Below the pieces are notes generated by a model that had not been told where the DNA came from, ran no database searches, and saw only the letters and a list, made by a program, of their open reading frames with translations. Shown here in pieces: positions 2,589-41,029 of a DNA stretch of 45,693 nucleotides; positions within the stretch are counted from its first letter, which is position 1, and the number at the start of each line of letters is the position of its first letter. Source of the DNA: Candidatus Parcubacteria bacterium (GTDB taxonomy: Bacteria > Patescibacteriota > Minisyncoccia > JAHIHE01 > JAGLIN01); the NCBI GenBank assembly GCA_023140775.1, contig JAGLLA010000009.1, forward strand, positions 1 to 45,693, in the 5' to 3' direction. The translations under genes and the position numbers were made by a program.

Positions 2589-4895
2589 ATGGACATCATT
2601 CCAAATAAAAAATCAAATCTTCTGTTTCAGAGAGGTGACATGGCAAATAAAGGCGTTATTGACTTGCGTCAGTTTTCTGACGAGAAAAAAAGAAAAAATA
2701 TATTAGTAGAAAATAATAACAACACAGTTTATGAAATTATTCGAAAAGAAAGTATTACAGAGTCAAAAAAGATTGCCCAAAAAGCAGATATAAAGCAAGA
2801 TGGAGCTATTGAGAATTATGCTTTACGTGAAAAAAAATATAAAAAGAGTTATGTCTCAAATGTTGATGTAAAAAAAACAGAAAGTGGAATAAAGCCAAAA
2901 TTTCGTTTTTCTCTTATATTGAGTAGATCTTTTGCATCGTTCATGTTTGCATCTGTATTTGTCTCTTCTCTTGTATTTTCTCTTTCGTTCCTTCAAAGTC
3001 AATTTGAAGAAAAGGGTCGAATTATGGGGGTGGGTGTAGAGGCTTTTGATCACTTGAAACAAGCAGGACAGTCTGTTGTTAAGCATGATTTTAGCGAAAG
3101 TTTTGGTGAATTTCAAGATGCCAAACTTACCTTTTCTGAAGCAAAAAGACTAACCGATGAATTCGGATTTGGCTTGGCGGGAATGCTCAACGCTTTGCCA
3201 ATAGATACGCCACTTTCTACTGCCAGAAATCTTTCAGGAGCGGGAGAAAACATCGCATTTGCGGGAGAAAATATTGTAAAACTTTTTGATGAGATCTCGA
3301 GGCTTGATCCAGGAAATTTTTCTTCTTCATCAATTTCAGGATTTGGAACTTTGATAGATAAAATTGCGATCAGTCTAAGGCAAGCTGGAAATGACATAAA
3401 TTCGATAAATATAGATTATATACCAGCTGAAATGAGAAATAAAATAGAGCTAGCTCAAAAAGAGTTGCCTATACTGGCTGACAATCTGGAAAATTTATCT
3501 GAAGATTTCGAGACTCTAACTGAGATAATCGGAAACAAAAGGCCTCAGAAATATTTGTTATTATTTCAAAATAATAGCGAAATGAGAGCGACTGGAGGGT
3601 TTATTGGAAGTTATGGAATTTTGGATATGGAAAATGGAAAAGTAGAAAATATATTTATTGATGGTATATTCAATCCGGATGGACAGCTGAAAGAGAAGAT
3701 CGTCCCACCGATGCCAATTCAGAAAATTAGCGCGAACTGGAGCATGCACGACGCAAATTGGTTTGCTGATTTCCCAACTAGCGCTCAAAAGGTTGCTTCT
3801 TTCTATGAGAAAACTGGAGGACCTACAGTTGACGGAGTGATCTCTTTTACGCCAACTGTAATCGAAAAAATATTAAAGATCACAGGTCCAGTTCGTATGG
3901 ATGAATATGACATAATCATAAATGCCGAAAATTTCCTTTCGCTCTCCCAAATGCAAGTTGAAGAATTGTATGACAGGCAGGAGAATAGACCGAAGAAATT
4001 TCTAGCAGATTTGATGCCAGTGATATTTGAAAAAATGATAAACAGTGAAGAAATGAACAAGAAGGAAAAAATTCAAAGATATCTTGATTTTATCAATGTA
4101 GTTGAAGAAAGCTTGAAAGAAAAACACATTATGTTCTATCACAGAGATTCTGAGATTGAAAATATGATCATCAAGAGAGGTTGGGGTGGTCAGATGTTGA
4201 ATTCTAGCGGAAACTATTTGAGTGTCGTAAATAGCAATATAAATGGATATAAAACAGATGCTGTCGTTGAAGAAACGATCGATCATCTGACTGAAATTTT
4301 TGAAGATGGTTCAATTGTTAACACTGTCAAAGTCACCAGAGTGCACAAGGGCGGACAAAGTGAGTATGATTGGTATAATCGGGTTAATTCTGATTATTTG
4401 AGAGTGTATGTGCCACTTGGAAGCATTTTGCTGGAAGCTAGCGGTCATACAGCGCAAGAATATGAGCCTCCAATGAATTATGATAATTTTCGTATCGATG
4501 AAGATGTAAAAAATGTTGAAGACACGATCAAGATTGATCCTGATTCGGGAACTCAGATTTTTACAGAATCCGGGAAGACTGTTTTTGGAAATTGGGTTTA
4601 TGTGAGTCCGGGTGAAAAGGTTGAAGTGATCTATAAATATAAATTGCCCTATCAGATTGATTTTGATTCTTTTACAAAACCAGCCGATAGATATAGTTTA
4701 CTAATTCAGAAACAGTCTGGTAGTCGAGGAAGTAATTTTTCTGGTACAATTAAAGTTCCAGATAGATGGAAAATTCTTTGGGAGTCTGCTGATTTGATAA
4801 CTCAAGATCAAAAAGAAAGCTATTTTGAGAGCAAATTAACGACAGATAGGTTCTATGGAGTTGTTTTTTCAAGGGGGCTCTGGGGGGATGAATAG
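2589..4895 (+). CDS. DUF4012-like membrane-anchored extracytoplasmic protein (768 aa)
   Basis: One TM segment (FASFMFASVFVSSLVFSLSF) followed by a large domain with LLLFQNNSEMRATGGFIGSYG, the signature I associate with DUF4012. The true start may be the internal MANKG at 2640. Confidence 0.6.
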   Translation: MDIIPNKKSNLLFQRGDMANKGVIDLRQFSDEKKRKNILVENNNNTVYEIIRKESITESKKIAQKADIKQDGAIENYALREKKYKKSYVSNVDVKKTESGIKPKFRFSLILSRSFASFMFASVFVSSLVFSLSFLQSQFEEKGRIMGVGVEAFDHLKQAGQSVVKHDFSESFGEFQDAKLTFSEAKRLTDEFGFGLAGMLNALPIDTPLSTARNLSGAGENIAFAGENIVKLFDEISRLDPGNFSSSSISGFGTLIDKIAISLRQAGNDINSINIDYIPAEMRNKIELAQKELPILADNLENLSEDFETLTEIIGNKRPQKYLLLFQNNSEMRATGGFIGSYGILDMENGKVENIFIDGIFNPDGQLKEKIVPPMPIQKISANWSMHDANWFADFPTSAQKVASFYEKTGGPTVDGVISFTPTVIEKILKITGPVRMDEYDIIINAENFLSLSQMQVEELYDRQENRPKKFLADLMPVIFEKMINSEEMNKKEKIQRYLDFINVVEESLKEKHIMFYHRDSEIENMIIKRGWGGQMLNSSGNYLSVVNSNINGYKTDAVVEETIDHLTEIFEDGSIVNTVKVTRVHKGGQSEYDWYNRVNSDYLRVYVPLGSILLEASGHTAQEYEPPMNYDNFRIDEDVKNVEDTIKIDPDSGTQIFTESGKTVFGNWVYVSPGEKVEVIYKYKLPYQIDFDSFTKPADRYSLLIQKQSGSRGSNFSGTIKVPDRWKILWESADLITQDQKESYFESKLTTDRFYGVVFSRGLWGDE

Positions 4896-5004
4896 AGATC
4901 GTATTTTCAGAATAAGTTCCTCTGGCGTAGAAAAAGTAGTTTGAAATGACAACTATCGAAAGTGTCCTTTTACGCCCTGATGTAATGAATGATTTTTCAA
5001 GTGA

Positions 5005-5032
5005 TTGACATAGAGGTAAATTGCTATAGAAT
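5005..5032 (+). promoter_or_regulatory. Sigma70-type promoter candidate for iscU and the pilin-like array
   Basis: TTGACA (5005-5010), 16-nt spacer, TAGAAT (5027-5032), about 40 nt upstream of the iscU ATG. Confidence 0.5.
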
Positions 5033-5071
5033 AAAAGTATAAATGATATAAATTATAATAGCTTTTTATAT

Positions 5072-5437
5072 ATGTATACAAAAAAAGTAATCCAGCATTT
5101 CACAAATCCTCATAACTGTGGTAAAATGAAAGAAGCAGATGCAGTAGGGGAAGCAGGTAATCCAGTTTGTGGAGATTTGATGAAAATTTACATCAAGGTT
5201 GATGATAATATCATCAAAGACATCTCGTTTGAAACTTTGGGTTGCGCGGCGGCGATTGCCACTTCTTCAATGGTGACTGATCTTGCTAAGGGAAGATCAT
5301 TGGACGAGGCAATGCAAATTACGAACAGTGAAGTGGCAGAAAACCTCAAAGGTCTTCCACCTGTCAAAATGCACTGCTCTAACCTAGCTGCCAGCGCTCT
5401 GCATAAGGCAATCGAGAATTATAAAAATAAAAAATAA
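5072..5437 (+). CDS. iscU: Fe-S cluster assembly scaffold, IscU/NifU N-terminal domain family
   Basis: GNPVCGDLMKIYIKV, LGCAAAIATSSM and MHCSNLAASALHKAI supply the three conserved cysteines of IscU-type scaffolds. Confidence 0.85.
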   Translation: MYTKKVIQHFTNPHNCGKMKEADAVGEAGNPVCGDLMKIYIKVDDNIIKDISFETLGCAAAIATSSMVTDLAKGRSLDEAMQITNSEVAENLKGLPPVKMHCSNLAASALHKAIENYKNKK

Positions 5438-5444
5438 GAAAATT

Positions 5445-5903
5445 GTGATGAAAATGTTAATTAGCAGAAAAATACTTCTTTTTATGATATTTTTTTCTGT
5501 CTTTTTTGTTGGGCAATTTTCTTTTACTGATATAAATGTTATTGGTGTTAAAGTGGCTACTGCTGGTTGTGTCCCTGGACCTAATGATGCTAATAGTGAT
5601 GGAGATGATTGTGATCCGAAAGAAAATTTATTTAATTGTAAACGAGACTGTTTACCTGCTGGAATTCCAACAAAAACTCCGGAGGATGCGCTAGATGCAA
5701 TAATCAAATGGATCTTAGGTTTTGGCTTGGTGCTTTCGGTCATCTTCCTGATTTGGGGTGGTATATATTACATTGGATCTTCTGGAGATTCGCAAAAAAC
5801 AGAGACAGCTAAAAAGATTATCAAATATGCCATATTGGGAATTATCGTGATCGGCGCATCGTTTGCAATTATTTCTGTGATAAGCACAATGCTTGCTCCA
5901 TAA
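5445..5903 (+). CDS. TrbC/VirB2-like (CPR-type T4SS pilin-like) protein, paralog 1, with a Cys-rich N-terminal extension
   Basis: Signal/TM segment followed by the conserved core WILGFGLVLSVIFLIWGGIYYIGSSGDSQKTETAKKIIKYAILGIIVIGASFAI. The ORF-track start is GTG; an ATG lies at 5448. Confidence 0.7.
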   Translation: MMKMLISRKILLFMIFFSVFFVGQFSFTDINVIGVKVATAGCVPGPNDANSDGDDCDPKENLFNCKRDCLPAGIPTKTPEDALDAIIKWILGFGLVLSVIFLIWGGIYYIGSSGDSQKTETAKKIIKYAILGIIVIGASFAIISVISTMLAP

Positions 5904-5909
5904 TCTGAT

Positions 5910-6287
5910 TTGACCAAACCTTTAAATAGTGAAATAATGATATTAATGAAAAAAAATAATCAAAAAATATTTTATGTATTACTGGCATCTCAATTTTTAG
6001 TCGCTGTTAGTGTTGCGAATGCTCAATATAGAAAGCCTTCAAGTTTTGGTTTGGCAAATGATATGGATAGTATGGCGGAGAAAATGATCGATTGGCTTCT
6101 GGGGTTTGCAACAGTACTTTCAGTTCTTGCTTTGATTTGGGGTGGCGTAAATTATATAGGTTCTTCTGGGGATGCGCAAAAAGCTGATCTCTCCAAAAAA
6201 ATTATTTATTTCGCTCTGATAGGTTTGGTGGTTACTGGTCTGGCTTTTGCGATGGTGAAAGTTCTAGTAGATGTAATTTTGAAATAA
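5910..6287 (+). CDS. TrbC/VirB2-like pilin-like protein, paralog 2
   Basis: Core WLLGFATVLSVLALIWGGVNYIGSSGDAQKADLSKKIIYFALIGLVVTGLAFAM. The track start is TTG; the likely ATG is at 5937 or 5946. Confidence 0.7.
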   Translation: MTKPLNSEIMILMKKNNQKIFYVLLASQFLVAVSVANAQYRKPSSFGLANDMDSMAEKMIDWLLGFATVLSVLALIWGGVNYIGSSGDAQKADLSKKIIYFALIGLVVTGLAFAMVKVLVDVILK

Positions 6288-6320
6288 TATTTAATAATCA
6301 AAAAACTAACTTTTATCCAA

Positions 6321-6692
6321 TTGAAATATAATATTATGAAAATGAAAAATAAGACACATCTCATACTCTTGTCTGTTTTGCTTTTTGTAAGTTATGCTAG
6401 TACAGCGCTAGCTAATATAGCATCTGGATGGGCTACTCCAGCGAAGCCAGGCGGAGTCGCGGACGATGTTGATTCTGCATTTATAAATATGACAAATTGG
6501 ATTTTGGGATTTATATCTATATTGGCTGTGCTCTTTGTTATTTGGGGCGGTGTTATGTATTTAACTTCAGCAGGTGATGAAAACAAGGCAGAAAGCGGAA
6601 AAAAAACCATAACATATGCTCTATTGGGTATAGTTATAGCTGGCCTTGCTTATGCAATGATAAAGATTATTGTAGGTACTATATTAATATAA
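6321..6692 (+). CDS. TrbC/VirB2-like pilin-like protein, paralog 3
   Basis: Core WILGFISILAVLFVIWGGVMYLTSAGDENKAESGKKTITYALLGIVIAGLAYAM. The track start is TTG; the likely ATG is at 6336 or 6342. Confidence 0.7.
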   Translation: MKYNIMKMKNKTHLILLSVLLFVSYASTALANIASGWATPAKPGGVADDVDSAFINMTNWILGFISILAVLFVIWGGVMYLTSAGDENKAESGKKTITYALLGIVIAGLAYAMIKIIVGTILI

Positions 6693-15194: not shown

Positions 15195-15234
15195 AATACA
15201 TTCCCTTAGAATGAATTTATTTAACAAATTTGTG

Positions 15235-15314
15235 TGCAGGCGGTGGGAGTCGAACCCACAATCCGAGGAACATGGTCCTAAACCATGCGCGTATGCCAAT
15301 TCCGCCACGCCTGC
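15235..15314 (-). tRNA. tRNA-Leu (anticodon TAG), type II with a long variable arm; no encoded CCA
   Basis: Hand-folded cloverleaf: acceptor GCAGGCG/CGCCTGC, anticodon stem CATGG/CCATG with loop TTTAGGA, T arm GTGGG-TTCGACT-CCCAC. Confidence 0.9.
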
Positions 15315-37582: not shown

Positions 37583-38176
37583 TTATACAACTAATGACAT
37601 AAAATAAGGAGTTATATATGCCTCAATTAGAGCCGCGAAGAATAAAAGGGGAATGAGGACAAATATATAAAATCTTAAAGCCTTGGTGAATTCCACAAGA
37701 AGATCCCCTTTTTTCCCAAATAATTTCCAAACTGTAATCTTTCCAATTTTTAGGCTTACTGCGGTAGCTAAAACGAGAACAGGAATTTCAATGATACCGT
37801 GAGGAGCAATACCAAGAATAAAAAATTCCCATGAGATCATACTAGACGAAACTTGAGCAAAAATACCGAGAACAAATCCATTTACAAGTATAAAGAACAA
37901 TGCAAAAAGTCCTGCAAAAAGTCCCAAGGGTAATAAGAGAAGTATCTTACTTGCATTATTCTCAAAGATAAACAAGAATATTCGATATGACGTCGTATTT
38001 TCTTCAATTGGAAAATAGGATTCAATATTTCTCAAAAATTTTGCTATCTCCTCAGGATTATTTTGAGCGAATACAAATCCAAAAACAATTGAAATCAAGA
38101 AAAGATAAGCAGAAAATACAATATAAGGCTTGATGCCGATTATATATTTTCTAATTTCTTTGATGTTCATAGGCAA
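37583..38176 (-). CDS. SpoIIM-like (stage II sporulation protein M family) membrane protein
   Basis: 197 aa, about 5 TM segments, with FENNASKILL ... VNGFVLG ... PHGIIEIPVL motifs typical of the family. Confidence 0.6.
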   Translation of the reverse strand: MPMNIKEIRKYIIGIKPYIVFSAYLFLISIVFGFVFAQNNPEEIAKFLRNIESYFPIEENTTSYRIFLFIFENNASKILLLLPLGLFAGLFALFFILVNGFVLGIFAQVSSSMISWEFFILGIAPHGIIEIPVLVLATAVSLKIGKITVWKLFGKKGDLLVEFTKALRFYIFVLIPLLFFAALIEAYITPYFMSLVV

Positions 38177-38222: not shown

Positions 38223-38249
38223 AAAATAAAAACCCAAGTTTGACTTGGG
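38223..38249 (-). terminator. Rho-independent terminator (minus strand)
   Basis: The minus strand reads CCCAAGT-caa-ACTTGGG then tttttatttt. Confidence 0.75.
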
Positions 38250-38278: not shown

Positions 38279-38362
38279 TCAAACACTAAATTTCCAACCT
38301 ACGAACAAAATTCCGTGGCTAATAATAATGCTAATAATACTTTGCTGATTGTTTGAGTTCAT
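38279..38362 (-). CDS. Small ORF P1 (27 aa, MNSNNQQSIISIIISHGILFVGWKFSV), hydrophobic C-terminal half
   Basis: ATG to TGA, followed within 30 nt by an intrinsic terminator. It shares the N-terminal M-x3-N-x-Q-S pattern with P2 and P3. It has no Shine-Dalgarno site. Confidence 0.35.
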   Translation of the reverse strand: MNSNNQQSIISIIISHGILFVGWKFSV

Positions 38363-38411
38363 ATTTAAATGTTGATTATTACGAATAAAAGGAGGAATAA
38401 ATTTATTAATG

Positions 38412-38492
38412 TTATTTTTTATGCTCTATCAGTTTAGGATGTTTTAATAAACATATTTTAAATAACCTTTCAGTCAATTCTTGAAATGTCAT
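38412..38492 (-). CDS. Small ORF S1 (26 aa, MTFQELTERLFKICLLKHPKLIEHKK)
   Basis: Strong Shine-Dalgarno site: AGAGGAGGGcaacaATG. Confidence 0.45.
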   Translation of the reverse strand: MTFQELTERLFKICLLKHPKLIEHKK

Positions 38493-38532
38493 TGTTGCCC
38501 TCCTCTTGTTGTTTATATTATTTTAATATAAT

Positions 38533-38561
38533 TTGTGTATATAAATATTTTATATACACAA
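38533..38561. promoter_or_regulatory. Perfect 29-bp palindrome (13-bp arms, 3-nt centre), candidate operator
   Basis: TTGTGTATATAAA-tat-TTTATATACACAA lies about 40 nt upstream of the S1 start on the minus strand. Confidence 0.5.
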
Positions 38562-38599
38562 GCTATTTTAAAATAAACTTGTTTGAATAAATGGAGAAG

Positions 38600-38640
38600 G
38601 AGAAGCTATATTTTTTGCGTTGTTTCGCATTGAGCTTCTC
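38600..38640. other. Hairpin between small ORFs S2 and S1
   Basis: GAGAAGCT ... AGCTTCTC (8 bp) encloses GCG-ttgttt-CGC. Confidence 0.5.
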
Positions 38641-38672
38641 ACTTCAAGGAGAAAAATACTAAACCCATAAAA

Positions 38673-38795
38673 TCAACCTCTGCTACTATTATGACTTGCC
38701 TCAGAGTTAAGCACGCTCGACGCATTGATTACGTATTGCTCATCTGGATCTTTAAAATATGGTATTTTTCTAGCTCCTTCGATTTCACTACACAT
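38673..38795 (-). CDS. Small ORF S2 (40 aa, MCSEIEGARKIPYFKDPDEQYVINASSVLNSEASHNSSRG)
   Basis: Shine-Dalgarno site GAGGAGataaactATG. The protein is hydrophilic. It is antisense to the less plausible + ORF 38691..38933. Confidence 0.45.
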   Translation of the reverse strand: MCSEIEGARKIPYFKDPDEQYVINASSVLNSEASHNSSRG

Positions 38796-39040
38796 AGTTT
38801 ATCTCCTCTGTCTCTTTTCGTGTCTAATTTAAGAGACAATTCATGTTTACAAATATTTATAAACACAAATCGTCCTTTAAACTATTTCATTATCAATGAT
38901 CGTGAAGCAGATAGTGTTGCAAGAAGAGTATGAGTGATTTATATTATCACTTTTCTATTATCGAATCATACTCTCTTACAACTAGCCGTGGCTGACGACT
39001 TTATAGGACAGTGTCTAGCTTTATGATCTTTGACGGGATT

Positions 39041-39084
39041 GATATTGTCTTGATTACAGAAAATAGTTGAATCAAGACAATATC
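39041..39084. other. Perfect 15-bp-stem hairpin
   Basis: GATATTGTCTTGATT-acagaaaatagttg-AATCAAGACAATATC. Confidence 0.7.
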
Positions 39085-39186
39085 GCCAAACACCTTGAGT
39101 CCTACTGAAAATCATTTATATAACTTTATATAATAAACTTTCGGTAAGACTAAAATATTTATAATCAATAATCAATTTTTTATAAC

Positions 39187-39206
39187 AAAAAACCCACTTT
39201 CGTAGG
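39187..39206 (-). terminator. Rho-independent terminator of unit P2
   Basis: The minus strand reads CCTAC-gaaa-GTGGG then ttttttg. Confidence 0.65.
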
Positions 39207-39242
39207 TTACTTTTAGTTTCGTTTGTTTTCTTTCTCTTTTAA

Positions 39243-39350
39243 CTAAACCAAAAGCAACTTACTAATTAGTAGGTTTTTTTTCGCAATAATCACGGCACTA
39301 GTTGTCTGGAGTGAGGTATTTCCATTGGATTGTGAATTTGATGTTGTCAT
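39243..39350 (-). CDS. Small ORF P2 (35 aa, MTTSNSQSNGNTSLQTTSAVIIAKKNLLISKLLLV); alternatively part of a non-coding sRNA of about 175 nt
   Basis: It lies between a consensus promoter and a terminator. It aligns without gaps and in frame with P3 over 30 codons. It has no Shine-Dalgarno site. Confidence 0.35.
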   Translation of the reverse strand: MTTSNSQSNGNTSLQTTSAVIIAKKNLLISKLLLV

Positions 39351-39370
39351 ATGTTTTTTTAACTGGTTGC

Positions 39371-39398
39371 ATTATAGCACGCATTGAAATGTTGTCAA
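39371..39398 (-). promoter_or_regulatory. Consensus sigma70 promoter of unit P2
   Basis: The minus strand reads TTGACA-16 nt-TATAAT; the -10 element ends 20 nt upstream of the P2 ATG. Confidence 0.65.
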
Positions 39399-39889
39399 AT
39401 AATTAATTGTGGATAGATGACGGATACCAAATTAATTTATTATTTACTGTGAATTGTTGAATTAGAAGTGATGATTTTTAAATGTTAAGCATTCATTTAT
39501 GGCGACCATCACCGTAAATAATTTGCGTTAAGTTTTTTCTTGATAGTTAAATTTGTTTTTTGAAAAATTAGAGGGCATGGATAATTATCCTTAGACACAA
39601 ACTCCAGTGCGTTTTTGCTGCCCCCTAAATACGCGACGTTCTTCACCTTCACTTTCACTTTCATCCCTATCCTTACCTTTCTTTTTATTTCTTTTTTTCT
39701 CTTTCTCGCTTGGCATAATTTCACACACTCCCTTTTATTTTTGTTTCATTTGTTTATTGCATTTGAGCAATCAGTAATTTTTAAATTATTTTTAAAAACA
39801 ATTGATTGATAAAATGTCGTCTAAAAAACCTACCGCCTTAGTGATTTGCTTTTAATCTGGTTTGTTTCCTAAACAAAATTAAAAGTAAA

Positions 39890-39982
39890 TTACTTAGCTA
39901 GTAGGTCTAGTTTCACAATCACAAAAGATCCAGCTGTCTGGGATTTAATTGCTTGTGTCGATTGTGGATTTAATTTATTCAT
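39890..39982 (-). CDS. Small ORF P3 (30 aa, MNKLNPQSTQAIKSQTAGSFVIVKLDLLAK); alternatively part of a non-coding sRNA of about 175 nt
   Basis: A paralog of P2 at both nucleotide and peptide level, preceded by a consensus promoter. Its 3' region folds into long stems ending GGTAGGTTTTTT (T-run at 39823-39828). Confidence 0.35.
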   Translation of the reverse strand: MNKLNPQSTQAIKSQTAGSFVIVKLDLLAK

Positions 39983-40005: not shown

Positions 40006-40034
40006 ATAATAGCATCATTCAAAGTTACTGTCAA
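40006..40034 (-). promoter_or_regulatory. Near-consensus sigma70 promoter of unit P3
   Basis: The minus strand reads TTGACA-17 nt-TATTAT; the -10 element ends 23 nt upstream of the P3 ATG. Confidence 0.6.
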
Positions 40035-40165: not shown

Positions 40166-41029
40166 TTATTTTTTCTTTTTTTTCTTTTCAACAATCTCTC
40201 TCACTTTTTCAATAATTTCTCCAACGGTGAAATGAGCTTTAATTATATAATCTTCTGCTCCTAGGGCAAATCCTTTTTCAATTTCGCTTGTTTGACCTAG
40301 GTTAGTAAGCATTATGACAGGAATTGATGCCTTTTCTGGAATTTCTTTGATTTTTTTCAACACTTCAAATCCATCCATTTTAGGCATAATAATGTCAAGT
40401 AATATTATTTCAGGGTCTTCTTCTTTGATCTTGGCAAGCGCTTCAACACCATCACAGGCCGAGCTAACATCAAATCCTTCTTTTTTAAATTTAGTTTCAC
40501 ATATGTCTCTTAAAAAATCATCATCTTCTGCAAGAATAACTTTCAGTCCACCCTTTTTATTCTCGTCAACTGAAATTTCTTCTTCCTCCTCTTCAATTTC
40601 CGTCTTGTCATTCTTTTCAATTACAGGCTCCCTTTTAGCTATTTTCTGAGTATTGTTGAAAAAATTAGAAACTTTTTCTAAAACTTCTGTGGGATCAAAA
40701 TCTGCTTTAATTAAATAATCAACTATATCAAATTTTTTGATCCTTTCAATTTCTACTGGTTCTCCCGAATTGGAGATAATGATCACCGGAATAGATGAAA
40801 ACTTATCATTCGCTCTCAGGTCATGCAGAACCTCAAATCCGTCTTTTATCGGCATTACTATGTCTAGTAAGATTAAATCCGGCATAAAACCGTCTTTTAT
40901 AAGATTTATTCCTTCTTCACCGTTATTGGCAACTAAAATTTCGTATCCGTTTGCTTCTAATTTCTTTTTCAAGAGACTCTGAAGAATTTCCTCGTCCTCC
41001 ATAATTATAATTTTTTTTGTCATAATCAA
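40166..41029 (-). CDS. Response regulator with two tandem receiver (REC) domains and no output domain
   Basis: Two CheY-like modules (DLILLDIVMPIKDGFEV and EIILLDIIMPKMDGFEV) joined by an acidic linker. Confidence 0.85.
   Translation of the reverse strand: MIMTKKIIIMEDEEILQSLLKKKLEANGYEILVANNGEEGINLIKDGFMPDLILLDIVMPIKDGFEVLHDLRANDKFSSIPVIIISNSGEPVEIERIKKFDIVDYLIKADFDPTEVLEKVSNFFNNTQKIAKREPVIEKNDKTEIEEEEEEISVDENKKGGLKVILAEDDDFLRDICETKFKKEGFDVSSACDGVEALAKIKEEDPEIILLDIIMPKMDGFEVLKKIKEIPEKASIPVIMLTNLGQTSEIEKGFALGAEDYIIKAHFTVGEIIEKVREIVEKKKKKK

Follow-up and report, generated by a model that had tools for sequence, protein, structure and literature searches.

The P1-P3 locus

We analysed a stretch of 45,693 nucleotides of a Candidatus Parcubacteria bacterium (assembly GCA_023140775.1, contig JAGLLA010000009.1; hereafter the window). 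Three micro-ORFs, named P1, P2 and P3, were present where the original prediction had placed them, all on the minus strand (Table 1). The ORF of P3 had already been called by a gene caller (P0002). Downstream, P1 is adjoined by a SpoIIM-like gene at a distance of 58 nt, and P3 is followed by a non-conserved spacer of 420 nt.

Table 1. Candidate features of the P1, P2 and P3 units, with promoters obtained by a consensus scan
Feature	Position	Strand	Description
P1 intrinsic terminator	38224..38249	-	Stem 38249-38233 followed by a T tract
P1 candidate leader ORF	38362..38279	-	27 codons plus stop, 27 aa; match to the P1-family HMM with E 1.1e-21
Structured non-coding block 3' of P2	38900..39183	-	Conserved; may or may not belong to the P2 unit; without Rfam match
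P2 long terminator hairpin and T tract	39187..39279	-	z = -3.93 compared with shuffles; second local hairpin at 39208-39191
P2 candidate leader ORF	39350..39243	-	35 codons plus stop, 35 aa
P2 promoter	39371..39398	-	TTGACA, 16 nt, TATAAT; 12/12 hexamer matches
P3 long terminator hairpin and T tract	39820..39908	-	z = -4.86 compared with shuffles; conserved with covariation
P3 candidate leader ORF	39982..39890	-	30 codons plus stop; starts at an ATG inside a listed ORF of 42 aa
P3 promoter	40006..40034	-	TTGACA, 17 nt, TATTAT, with TG before the -10 element; 11/12 hexamer matches

Relatives of the three ORFs share a common layout, consisting of a promoter, a short AU-rich leader of ~12-20 nt before the ATG, an ORF of 20-39 codons and an intrinsic terminator. 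The homologues of the P3 unit also have the same promoter layout as P3 itself. As judged from the sequence, each of P1, P2 and P3 is, or derives from, a small unit of transcription running from a putative sigma-70-type promoter to a predicted intrinsic terminator.

Kinship of the three micro-ORFs

P2 and P3 could be aligned without gaps over 30 codons, and all ten identities listed in the original prediction were confirmed. Their likeness is also visible at the DNA level (65.6% over 160 nt, E 8.8e-4), where it extends over the promoter on one side and, past the stop codon, over the 3' hairpin on the other. We regard P2 and P3 as true paralogues.

An N-terminal signature with Asn, Gln and Ser had been proposed to unite all three ORFs. 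The residues N5, Q7 and S8 do occur in all three window peptides, but they are not a shared feature of P1 and P2/P3 at the family level. Among 13 P1-type peptides, N5 was found in eight, Q7 in three, and S8 in the window's own copy only. With the amino-acid frequencies of the window's genome, the combination of N5, Q7 and S8 has a chance of ~1.2e-4 per peptide; since the motif was picked after inspection of the sequences, we treat its match in P1 as probably coincidental. In the P2/P3 family, the codons for residues 5-8 lie in the 5' arm of an RNA stem that is conserved. Furthermore, when profile HMMs were built for the P1 and P2/P3 families, neither matched the other, even at E<=10, and we assign P1 to a separate family. 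Both families are conserved across one family of the Patescibacteria.

Candidate leader units upstream of biosynthesis genes in relatives

Related genomes were searched for genes of the LeuA/CimA family (HMGL genes), and nine such genes were found in eight of the 32 genomes of the order. A leader unit is located directly upstream and on the same strand in eight of these nine cases. Upstream of five HMGL genes (in G012, G015, G018, G021 and at G002:C106), within 110-190 nt, lies a P2/P3-type unit whose tail is Leu-rich. Another three, those of G009 and G004 (at 64 nt in both) and G002:C107, are preceded by a P1-type unit. Neither leader type was found upstream of the HMGL gene of G010. In the genomes examined, P2-type copies were never located directly upstream of an HMGL gene. 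A profile of P2/P3-type copies that do not adjoin HMGL genes matched the five gene-linked units with E-values of 6e-11 to 1.5e-19. Among 17 candidate places, weak matches in G015 and G021 and a reverse-strand match in G002 were dropped after inspection. The alignments exclude the truncated copy of G010, and some of them also exclude L002, which is cut by the end of its contig, the partial copy L003b and two short forms.

The clades of the HMGL enzymes correspond to the type of leader, with a support of 1.0. NCBIfam could not separate LeuA from CimA; three full-length enzymes all matched the same 2-isopropylmalate-synthase subfamily. If the leaders act as proposed below, two paralogous LeuA/CimA-type enzymes, each with a matching leader, would provide a hint to enzyme specificity from sequence only.

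The amino-acid composition of the leaders follows their type. Gene-linked leaders of the P2/P3 type contain 6-7 Leu per peptide, and in three of them six Leu are found within the last 11 residues. The tails of P2 and P3 in the window are less Leu-rich, with six Leu in P2 and four in P3, of which three are encoded by CTA. Peptides of the P1 family contain 5-8 Ile in a total of 22-35 aa; P1 of the window has six, with the run ATT ATT AGC ATT ATT ATT at ~38338-38321. The Ile codons of the P1 family vary synonymously (7 synonymous versus 6 non-synonymous variant types, P=0.013), and in all 13 copies the ATG and the Ile run share a frame, across five spacings. We read the hydrophobic C-terminus noted in the original prediction as a run of regulatory Ile or Leu/Val/Ile codons.

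Proposed attenuation mechanism

We consider it likely that P1, P2 and P3 encode the leader peptides of ribosome-dependent transcription attenuators, with P1 of an isoleucine type and P2 and P3 as paralogues of a leucine/branched-chain type, and that all three are orphans in this genome.

In the P1 type, segment A, which directly follows the Ile run, and the terminator 3' arm E would compete for segment D. If a ribosome stalls near the start of the Ile run, A would stay free, such that the A:D antiterminator could form and transcription would read through. A ribosome continuing over A to the stop codon would instead allow the D:E terminator to form. In the alignment of the P1 family, A:D and D:E use common D columns and are mutually exclusive helices. 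Pairing is ~90% or higher in both, and of the 10 pairs in each helix, 5 in A:D and 4 in D:E show compensatory changes; none of 500 shuffles reached the covariation score of either whole structure (the alternative helix together with the shared B:C hairpin). When a ribosome was modelled at the stop codon, A:D was still the minimum-energy fold in four of five family members (G009, G004, G022 and G006, but not G016); the direction of regulation assigned to the P1 type hence rests on analogy and a steric argument. P1 of the window has retained only ~5 of the 10 antiterminator pairs, and its terminator was predicted in every modelled ribosome state. With its antiterminator lost, P1 of the window looks decayed in these models.

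In the P2/P3 type, the Leu codons themselves, including an invariant CTA CTA of this minor codon, would serve as the 5' arm of the basal helix of the terminator, and a ribosome stalled on them would keep the terminator from forming. A separate antiterminator was not found for this type, and the modelled effect is occlusion of the terminator 5' arm by the ribosome. In P3, three CTA codons (~39910-39899) lie in or adjoin this arm. P3 has no local back-up hairpin in the fold model, and when a ribosome was placed on its Leu-Leu codons in the model, none of the last 8 nt of the terminator 3' arm was still paired. In P2, a 1-nt deletion two codons before the usual stop of the family has lengthened the frame by five codons, a 35-codon form that is also found in G003 and G001 of the same genus. 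Its Leu codons include CTA CTA at ~39272-39267 and TTG CTT TTG at ~39257-39249. The local hairpin of P2 formed in the fold model even with the 5' arm masked, which predicts ribosome-independent termination at P2, and constitutive termination is likewise predicted for P2-type copies with their local back-up hairpin.

Probable coding frames and constraint on the RNA

Several results suggest that the ORFs are translated. In 18 long-form copies of the P2/P3 type, which were used for the stop-avoidance and codon tests, no stop was observed in frame 0 whereas column shuffles predicted 5.1±1.7 (P=0.0006); the numbers of stops in frames +1 and +2 were as expected. The distance from the ATG to the terminator arm maintains one frame in all 20 P2/P3-type copies, despite five different lengths, and this frame is kept through at least six separate indels of 3n nucleotides. 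The 3' segment outside the ORF does not keep a frame, as its lengths are split 7/6/6 over the three frames. Moreover, the ATG is invariant in all aligned copies (13/13 and 26/26). The original prediction had taken the absence of frame-breaking indels as an argument for coding; frame-breaking indels were looked for in the homologues and none were found between the ATG and the terminator arm in the 20 copies, which together with the avoidance of in-frame stops bears the argument out. The leader ORFs lack a Shine-Dalgarno sequence, but this is no objection to translation, because in the window's genome the Shine-Dalgarno sequence occurs at background level (6.1% of 358 long ORFs versus a background of 8.2%). 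The start context of the leader ORFs, A-rich with T at -1, is usual for this genome. By these measures, the frames of the P1, P2 and P3 types behave as coding frames and look translated.

The constraint on the P2/P3 sequences follows the RNA rather than the peptide. The variability at codon positions 1, 2 and 3 was 0.39, 0.62 and 0.48 in unpaired codons and 0.22, 0.24 and 0.23 in stem codons, and codon-position variability in the 18 copies gave no signature of amino-acid-level selection. Synonymous sites are frozen; CTA CTA and CAA were each conserved in 18/18 copies, even though CTA accounts for 10% of the Leu codons in the window's genome. The conserved residue blocks coincide without exception with arms of RNA stems, and compensatory changes in these stems alter residues. 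For the 26 copies of the P2/P3 type, 26 pairs were predicted, nine of them with compensatory changes, and the basal terminator helix is conserved. Hence, the single family of functional 27-35 aa peptides that had been proposed was not supported, given that P1 forms a family of its own, the lack of residue-level selection in P2/P3 and the frozen synonymous sites.

These results also bear on other explanations. Small-protein genes, whose peptides would have a polar head, a hydrophobic or amphipathic tail and a function in trans, would account for ORFs that stay open and in frame and for the strong conservation of P2-type units in genomes without any HMGL gene, and a leader peptide with a function in trans has a precedent in the available text on peTrpL (PMC7298713). 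Yet no sign of purifying selection on the amino acids was found in the codon-position variability, stem arms explain the conserved residue blocks, and the ORFs, whose middle part is not conserved, vary in length between 20 and 39 codons. When 1.84 billion proteins were searched with a profile, only six matches were obtained at E<=0.001, of which five belong to the P2/P3 family itself, including P3 of the window; the sixth, a repetitive 128-aa protein, was judged unrelated. We consider trans-acting small proteins unlikely.

Somewhat less probable still are purely non-coding small RNAs in which the ORFs are incidental. The strong conserved folds with covariation, the equal conservation of stems at all three codon positions, and the units with a promoter and terminator of their own would all suit such RNAs. 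The avoidance of stops specifically in frame 0, the invariant ATG and the preservation of the frame through the 3n indels, but not in the 3' part, would not, and neither would tails with runs of Ile or Leu codons in units that precede the matching biosynthetic genes.

Type I toxin genes, which encode small hydrophobic peptides on highly structured mRNAs, would match the ~30 aa peptides with a hydrophobic tail and the structured mRNA without Shine-Dalgarno sequence, but are very improbable, as the hydrophobic stretch spans just ~11-13 residues and is broken by Lys, a consensus scan (a weak test) gave no plus-strand promoter-like site inside the ORF of P2 or P3, and the adjacency to HMGL genes and the logic of the Ile and Leu codons have no place in a toxin model. 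An antisense RNA from the nearest promoter-like site on the plus strand (39105-39134) was rejected because this site lies inside a conserved hairpin arm. Precursors of RiPPs or bacteriocins were rejected as well, with no modification or export genes nearby, and SRP RNA, 6S RNA, RNase P RNA and tmRNA found no support in Rfam or ARAGORN.

Probably orphaned units in the window

Returning to the attenuator reading, we classify the three units of the window as orphan leaders because no HMGL gene adjoins them. A search with tblastn did not recover a remnant of such a gene: the best match in the window's gap was 23 aa long with E 0.65, and there was nothing at E<=1e-3 across the genome, of which the assembly is 70% complete. 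With no HMGL gene beside the leaders or in the assembly, a function in cis cannot apply here as it does in the relatives. Most likely, the target biosynthesis genes were deleted in this lineage and survive in the relatives. In G002, of the same genus, the site just after the gene of the dual-receiver regulator, which is equivalent to the site of P3, is occupied by a homologous leader and, after it, an HMGL-family gene. The units of the window would thus be attenuators by descent, not by present arrangement.

In 33 of 36 genome pairs, conservation is stronger in the P2-type copies than in the adjacent SpoIIM gene, and this also holds for pairs of 100%-complete genomes without an HMGL gene. This hints at a retained function of their own, and P2 and P3, which are still well conserved, may act on their own. 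A tentative and somewhat doubtful extension is that the orphan P2/P3-type units are not relics, but stand-alone translation-coupled small RNA genes derived from a leucine attenuator. In favour of this, besides their conservation, their frame has stayed open and their structure covaries. The units would report the charging of Leu-, Ile- and Val-tRNA after the loss of branched-chain amino-acid synthesis. Their output would be an RNA or a peptide acting in trans, or else read-through into the structured RNA block downstream.

Relation to known attenuators

Leader-peptide attenuation is textbook biology, and the trp, leu, ilv, thr, his and phe leaders of Proteobacteria are the classical ribosome-dependent attenuators. 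The units described here resemble them in the codon run for the regulated amino acid that their short ORF carries, in the intrinsic terminator just upstream of the biosynthetic gene (in the relatives), and, for the P1 family, in the mutually exclusive antiterminator and terminator helices. They differ in that they match no Rfam leader family, occur in Patescibacteria with a genome that makes no use of Shine-Dalgarno sequences, and in the window are without the regulated gene. A literature search, with incomplete coverage, returned only passing mentions of leader peptides in Patescibacteria and no report of leader-peptide attenuation. If our interpretation is correct, reduced genomes nearly without Shine-Dalgarno sequences would couple translation to transcription termination, thereby sensing Ile and Leu.

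The layout of the P2/P3 type is similar to that of the candidate leaders of actinobacterial ilvB, in which, according to the available text of Seliverstov et al. (2005; PMC1262725), runs of Ile, Val and Leu codons overlap the terminator hairpins. The sequences are unrelated and come from another phylum. The units described here have a LeuA/CimA-family gene as their target and an unusually long terminator hairpin (~90 nt). The same text describes that mutation of the candidate regulatory codons in the ilvB leader of S. coelicolor left regulation unaffected, a caveat that applies equally to the mechanism proposed here.

For the conserved orphan units, a possible model is offered by rnTrpL and peTrpL of Sinorhizobium meliloti, the terminated attenuator RNA and the leader peptide of which function in trans, as far as described in the available text (PMC6614838, PMC7298713). 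In the same sources the rnTrpL attenuator still precedes trpE(G), whereas the P1, P2 and P3 units persist without a target gene. If true, leaders that outlive their targets under strong constraint would form a natural series from a cis-regulatory leader to an independent small RNA or protein gene. Moreover, the example warns that in annotation frame conservation alone is insufficient to call conserved micro-ORFs small proteins.

Other sequences in the gap

Rfam at the gathering threshold returned nothing but tRNAs for the window and five related loci. At E<=10, the window's gap gave sub-threshold noise, in which the only leader family was Phe_leader (19 bits versus a threshold of 55). A 143-aa ORF that follows the P3-type copy of G014 had no match to a Pfam family. 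The gap of the window also contains two ORFs of 40 and 41 aa with a Shine-Dalgarno sequence, for which no convincing homologue was found in 19 related loci. Even within the genus, the spacer with the 41-aa ORF lacks conservation, and the 40-aa ORF has a weak match of 17 aa in locus L003 of the same genus.

Anatomy and relatedness of the three units

The window is one of 49 contigs of a genome bin of 638 kb with 33% G+C that is 70% complete; relatives with the same elements carry the database labels Patescibacteria, Paceibacterota or Parcubacteria. All three micro-ORFs were present with the sequences originally given; they lie on the minus strand, within a 2-kb stretch without long ORFs. This stretch is flanked by a SpoIIM-like gene and by a response regulator gene, the last of a two-component operon. 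In a consensus scan, matches to the sigma-70-type promoter hexamers were 12/12 for P2 and 11/12 for P3. Both units have the order promoter, short AU-rich leader, ORF and hairpin of ~90 nt, with a 5′ arm that begins inside the final codons and a 3′ arm that continues into a T tract (fold z-scores of -3.9 and -4.9, respectively). The P1 terminator is shorter and its fold weaker (z = -1.7), and the scan listed no promoter-like site immediately upstream of P1.

Features of the window discussed in this section
Feature	Position	Strand	Remark
tRNA-Leu, anticodon TAG	15234-15314	minus	reader of CTA codons
SpoIIM-like gene	37583-38176	minus	one flank of 2-kb stretch
P1	38362-38279	minus	Ile-run leader family
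26-aa ORF	38492-38412		after second palindrome
AT-rich palindrome 2	~38530-38560	minus	near-perfect
40-aa ORF	38795-38673		after first palindrome
AT-rich palindrome 1	~38840-38880	minus	near-perfect
Conserved structured non-coding block	38900-39183	minus	immediately after P2 terminator
P2	39350-39243	minus	Leu/branched-chain leader family
P3-P2 spacer	39400-39822		~420 nt
41-aa low-complexity ORF	39716-39591		in P3-P2 spacer; SD-like block
P3	39982-39890	minus	Leu/branched-chain leader family
Dual-receiver response regulator gene	40166-41029	minus	other flank of 2-kb stretch

The three peptides had been proposed to form one family. P2 and P3 are indeed homologues, as seen in the DNA over the promoter and past the stop codon, but P1 stands apart: profile HMMs of the two families gave no cross-match even at E<=10, so that P1 is not detectably related. 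N5/Q7/S8 is the signature of the P2/P3 family, where its codons make the 5′ arm of a stem; among P1-type peptides only the window copy has S8 (1/13), and its match to the three-way motif is probably coincidental.

According to the profile HMMs, the window's genome has just two copies of the P2/P3 type and one of the P1 type. At E<=1e-5, P2/P3-type units occurred in 16 of the 32 genomes of the order (14/23 in the window's own family, 1/1 in a second and 0/7 in two others); further copies, in G004, G018, G021 and one other genome, came from profile searches of related loci. P1-type matches were obtained in 16/32 genomes at E<=1e-3, of which two were discarded as spurious; a further copy is truncated. 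When 185,579 species genomes were scanned for an exact pattern, 18 matches came up, 17 of them in candidate-phyla-type bins; the other, in a Paenibacillus, was dismissed as chance. A profile search of 1.84 billion proteins returned only five family members, the window's P3 among them. Short P2/P3-family forms of 25 codons (locus L040, G006:C67) and 20 codons (L041, G010:C27) have the promoter, last eight codons and terminator unchanged and a different 5′ half; they adjoin, convergently, prephenate dehydratase- and dehydrogenase-like ORFs identified by eye.

Leader units upstream of HMGL genes

HMGL-family (LeuA/CimA-family) genes were found in 8 of the 32 genomes, nine genes in total, encoding ~500 aa with HMGL, HCS_D2 and LeuA_dimer domains. 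Five of the nine have a P2/P3-type unit 110-190 nt ahead of them in the same orientation, with a peptide ending in a Leu-rich tail. A profile built from P2/P3-type copies without an HMGL neighbour confirmed these five leaders as homologous (E 6e-11 to 1.5e-19). A P1-type unit stands ahead of three further genes, at a distance of 64 nt in G009 and G004, and the G010 gene has neither leader type. Enzyme clades match leader type, with splits supported at 1.0: Ile-led enzymes (G009, G004, G002:C107) share 59-65% identity and Leu-led enzymes (G015, G018, G021, G012) 62-94%, versus 42-46% between the groups. NCBIfam assigns all of them, judged from three full-length enzymes, to a single isopropylmalate/citramalate synthase subfamily that does not separate LeuA from CimA; going by the leader codons, the Ile-led enzymes would be of the citramalate type and the Leu-led ones of the isopropylmalate type. 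This context in relatives very probably settles the identity of the elements as attenuator leaders.

The ORF preceding the leaderless gene (L063, G010:C52) was judged by eye to be isopropylmalate/isocitrate-dehydrogenase-like; repeated GC-richer hairpin elements are present upstream of the gene. The Leu-led LeuA-like gene of G012 (L062, G012:C11, ~4873-6414, minus) contains one in-frame TGA, which may reflect a sequencing error, pseudogenization or recoding. L061 (G015:C79, 1863-2450, minus) has, between a P2-type copy and SpoIIM, a 195-aa ORF that encodes no more than the HCS_D2 end and the LeuA_dimer allosteric domain. This ORF is either what is left of a second LeuA gene or a regulatory domain that stands alone.

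Predicted switching in the two families

In the P1 family, RNA segment A directly follows the Ile run and segment E is the 3′ arm of the terminator; both are complementary to segment D. The A:D and D:E helices are each ~90% or more paired, with compensatory changes at 5 and 4 of 10 pairs, respectively, among them triple covariation in G016 and G012. The covariation score of each whole structure, including the shared B:C hairpin, was reached by 0/500 shuffles. When the ribosome footprint was masked in fold models, an early stall in the Ile run kept the antiterminator, and a footprint over A gave the terminator in 4 of the 5 family members folded. A ribosome stalled early would preserve the A:D antiterminator, and one covering A would permit the D:E terminator. 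Folding did not separate the two outcomes for the 'ribosome at stop' state, so the likely direction of control was taken from the classical model.

In the P2/P3 type, the basal terminator helix has the Leu codons themselves as its 5′ arm. When these codons were masked, the helix was broken in the gene-linked leaders and in P3 (0/8 basal positions paired), where a ribosome on the Leu codons would disrupt it; masking had no such effect in P2-type copies, which have a local back-up hairpin. The part of PMC1262725 on actinobacterial ilvB leaders describes a similar layout, with the caution that codon mutations there were without effect.

Translation and RNA constraint

The original prediction had favoured a coding reading for lack of frame-breaking indels. 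The only indel that is not a multiple of three lies two codons ahead of the stop and merely lengthens the P2 frame by five codons. Among aligned P2/P3-type copies the ATG is invariant, and in-frame stops are avoided (0 observed versus 5.1±1.7 expected from column shuffles, P=0.0006), with stops in frames +1 and +2 as expected. The distance from ATG to terminator arm (47, 62, 74, 77 or 80 nt) keeps a single frame in 20/20 copies; the 3′ segment, by contrast, has 11 lengths with frames split 7/6/6. Gene-linked copies contain an extra 27-nt insertion. Absence of an SD is no objection to translation, because SD-like 4-mers precede only 6.1% of 358 long ORFs in this genome, against 8.2% at random places. 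Starts in this genome lie in A-rich sequence, and 58% of ORFs have T at -1, a context that the micro-ORFs share.

Codon-position variability showed no coding pattern. Leu28-Leu29 is encoded by CTA CTA in 18/18 copies, yet just 10% of Leu codons in this genome are CTA; the window carries a tRNA-Leu reading CTA. Each conserved residue block is an arm of an RNA stem, compensatory changes occur at 9 of 26 predicted pairs (26 copies), and those in the tip hairpin alter the encoded residues. Judged from these alignments, both translation and RNA constraint are present in the P2/P3 family. What selection appears to preserve is therefore the RNA fold and the process of being translated rather than any peptide sequence: the frames are probably translated, but their peptides are not what is being selected.

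Orphan copies and their conservation

No HMGL gene or remnant was found in the 2-kb gap or in the assembly (70% complete), and P1, P2 and P3 are therefore orphan leaders. The P1 terminator ends 58 nt ahead of the SpoIIM-like gene; at the equivalent place G009 has the order P1, HMGL gene, SpoIIM. P3 directly follows the regulator gene; in the same-genus genome G002 this position is taken up by a homologous leader, then a divergent HMGL gene and then a P2-type copy. The P3-P2 spacer, which is not conserved even within the genus, resembles a scar left by deletion of an HMGL gene. Nine genomes, 70% to 100% complete, keep a P1-type unit without an HMGL gene (the window's G000, G001, G005, G006, G008, G014, G016, G022 and G026). 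The window's P1 has lost A:D pairing and is 63.9% conserved relative to G001, versus 73.8% for the neighbouring gene; by these comparisons it looks like a decaying relic.

In none of the genomes examined does a P2-type copy lie immediately ahead of an HMGL gene. Even so, the conservation of these copies exceeds that of SpoIIM in 33 of 36 genome pairs (86.5% versus 69.2%, for instance, in two HMGL-less genomes, both 100% complete), which favours an independent function. As sequence families, the P1 and P2/P3 elements appear to be new, of a switch type already known; a limited literature search found no description of leader-peptide attenuators in this lineage. Their distinctive twist is that orphan copies are long-lived and conserved.

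The block after the P2 terminator comprises a long hairpin, a second with a short conserved single-stranded motif, and a third. It is common to G006, G008, G010, G002, G009 and G022, has no match in Rfam and could be part of the P2-type function. Trans-acting attenuator RNAs and leader peptides are known in Sinorhizobium, as part of PMC6614838 describes. In L004 (G022:C22), a tRNA-gene-like sequence, seen by eye directly after the P2-type terminator, occupies the place of the first hairpin of this block in other genomes. After each of the two palindromes come an SD-like purine block and a small ORF, an arrangement conserved in the same-genus loci L003 and L038. The palindromes resemble operator sites; SD-like blocks are unexpected in a genome that hardly uses SD.
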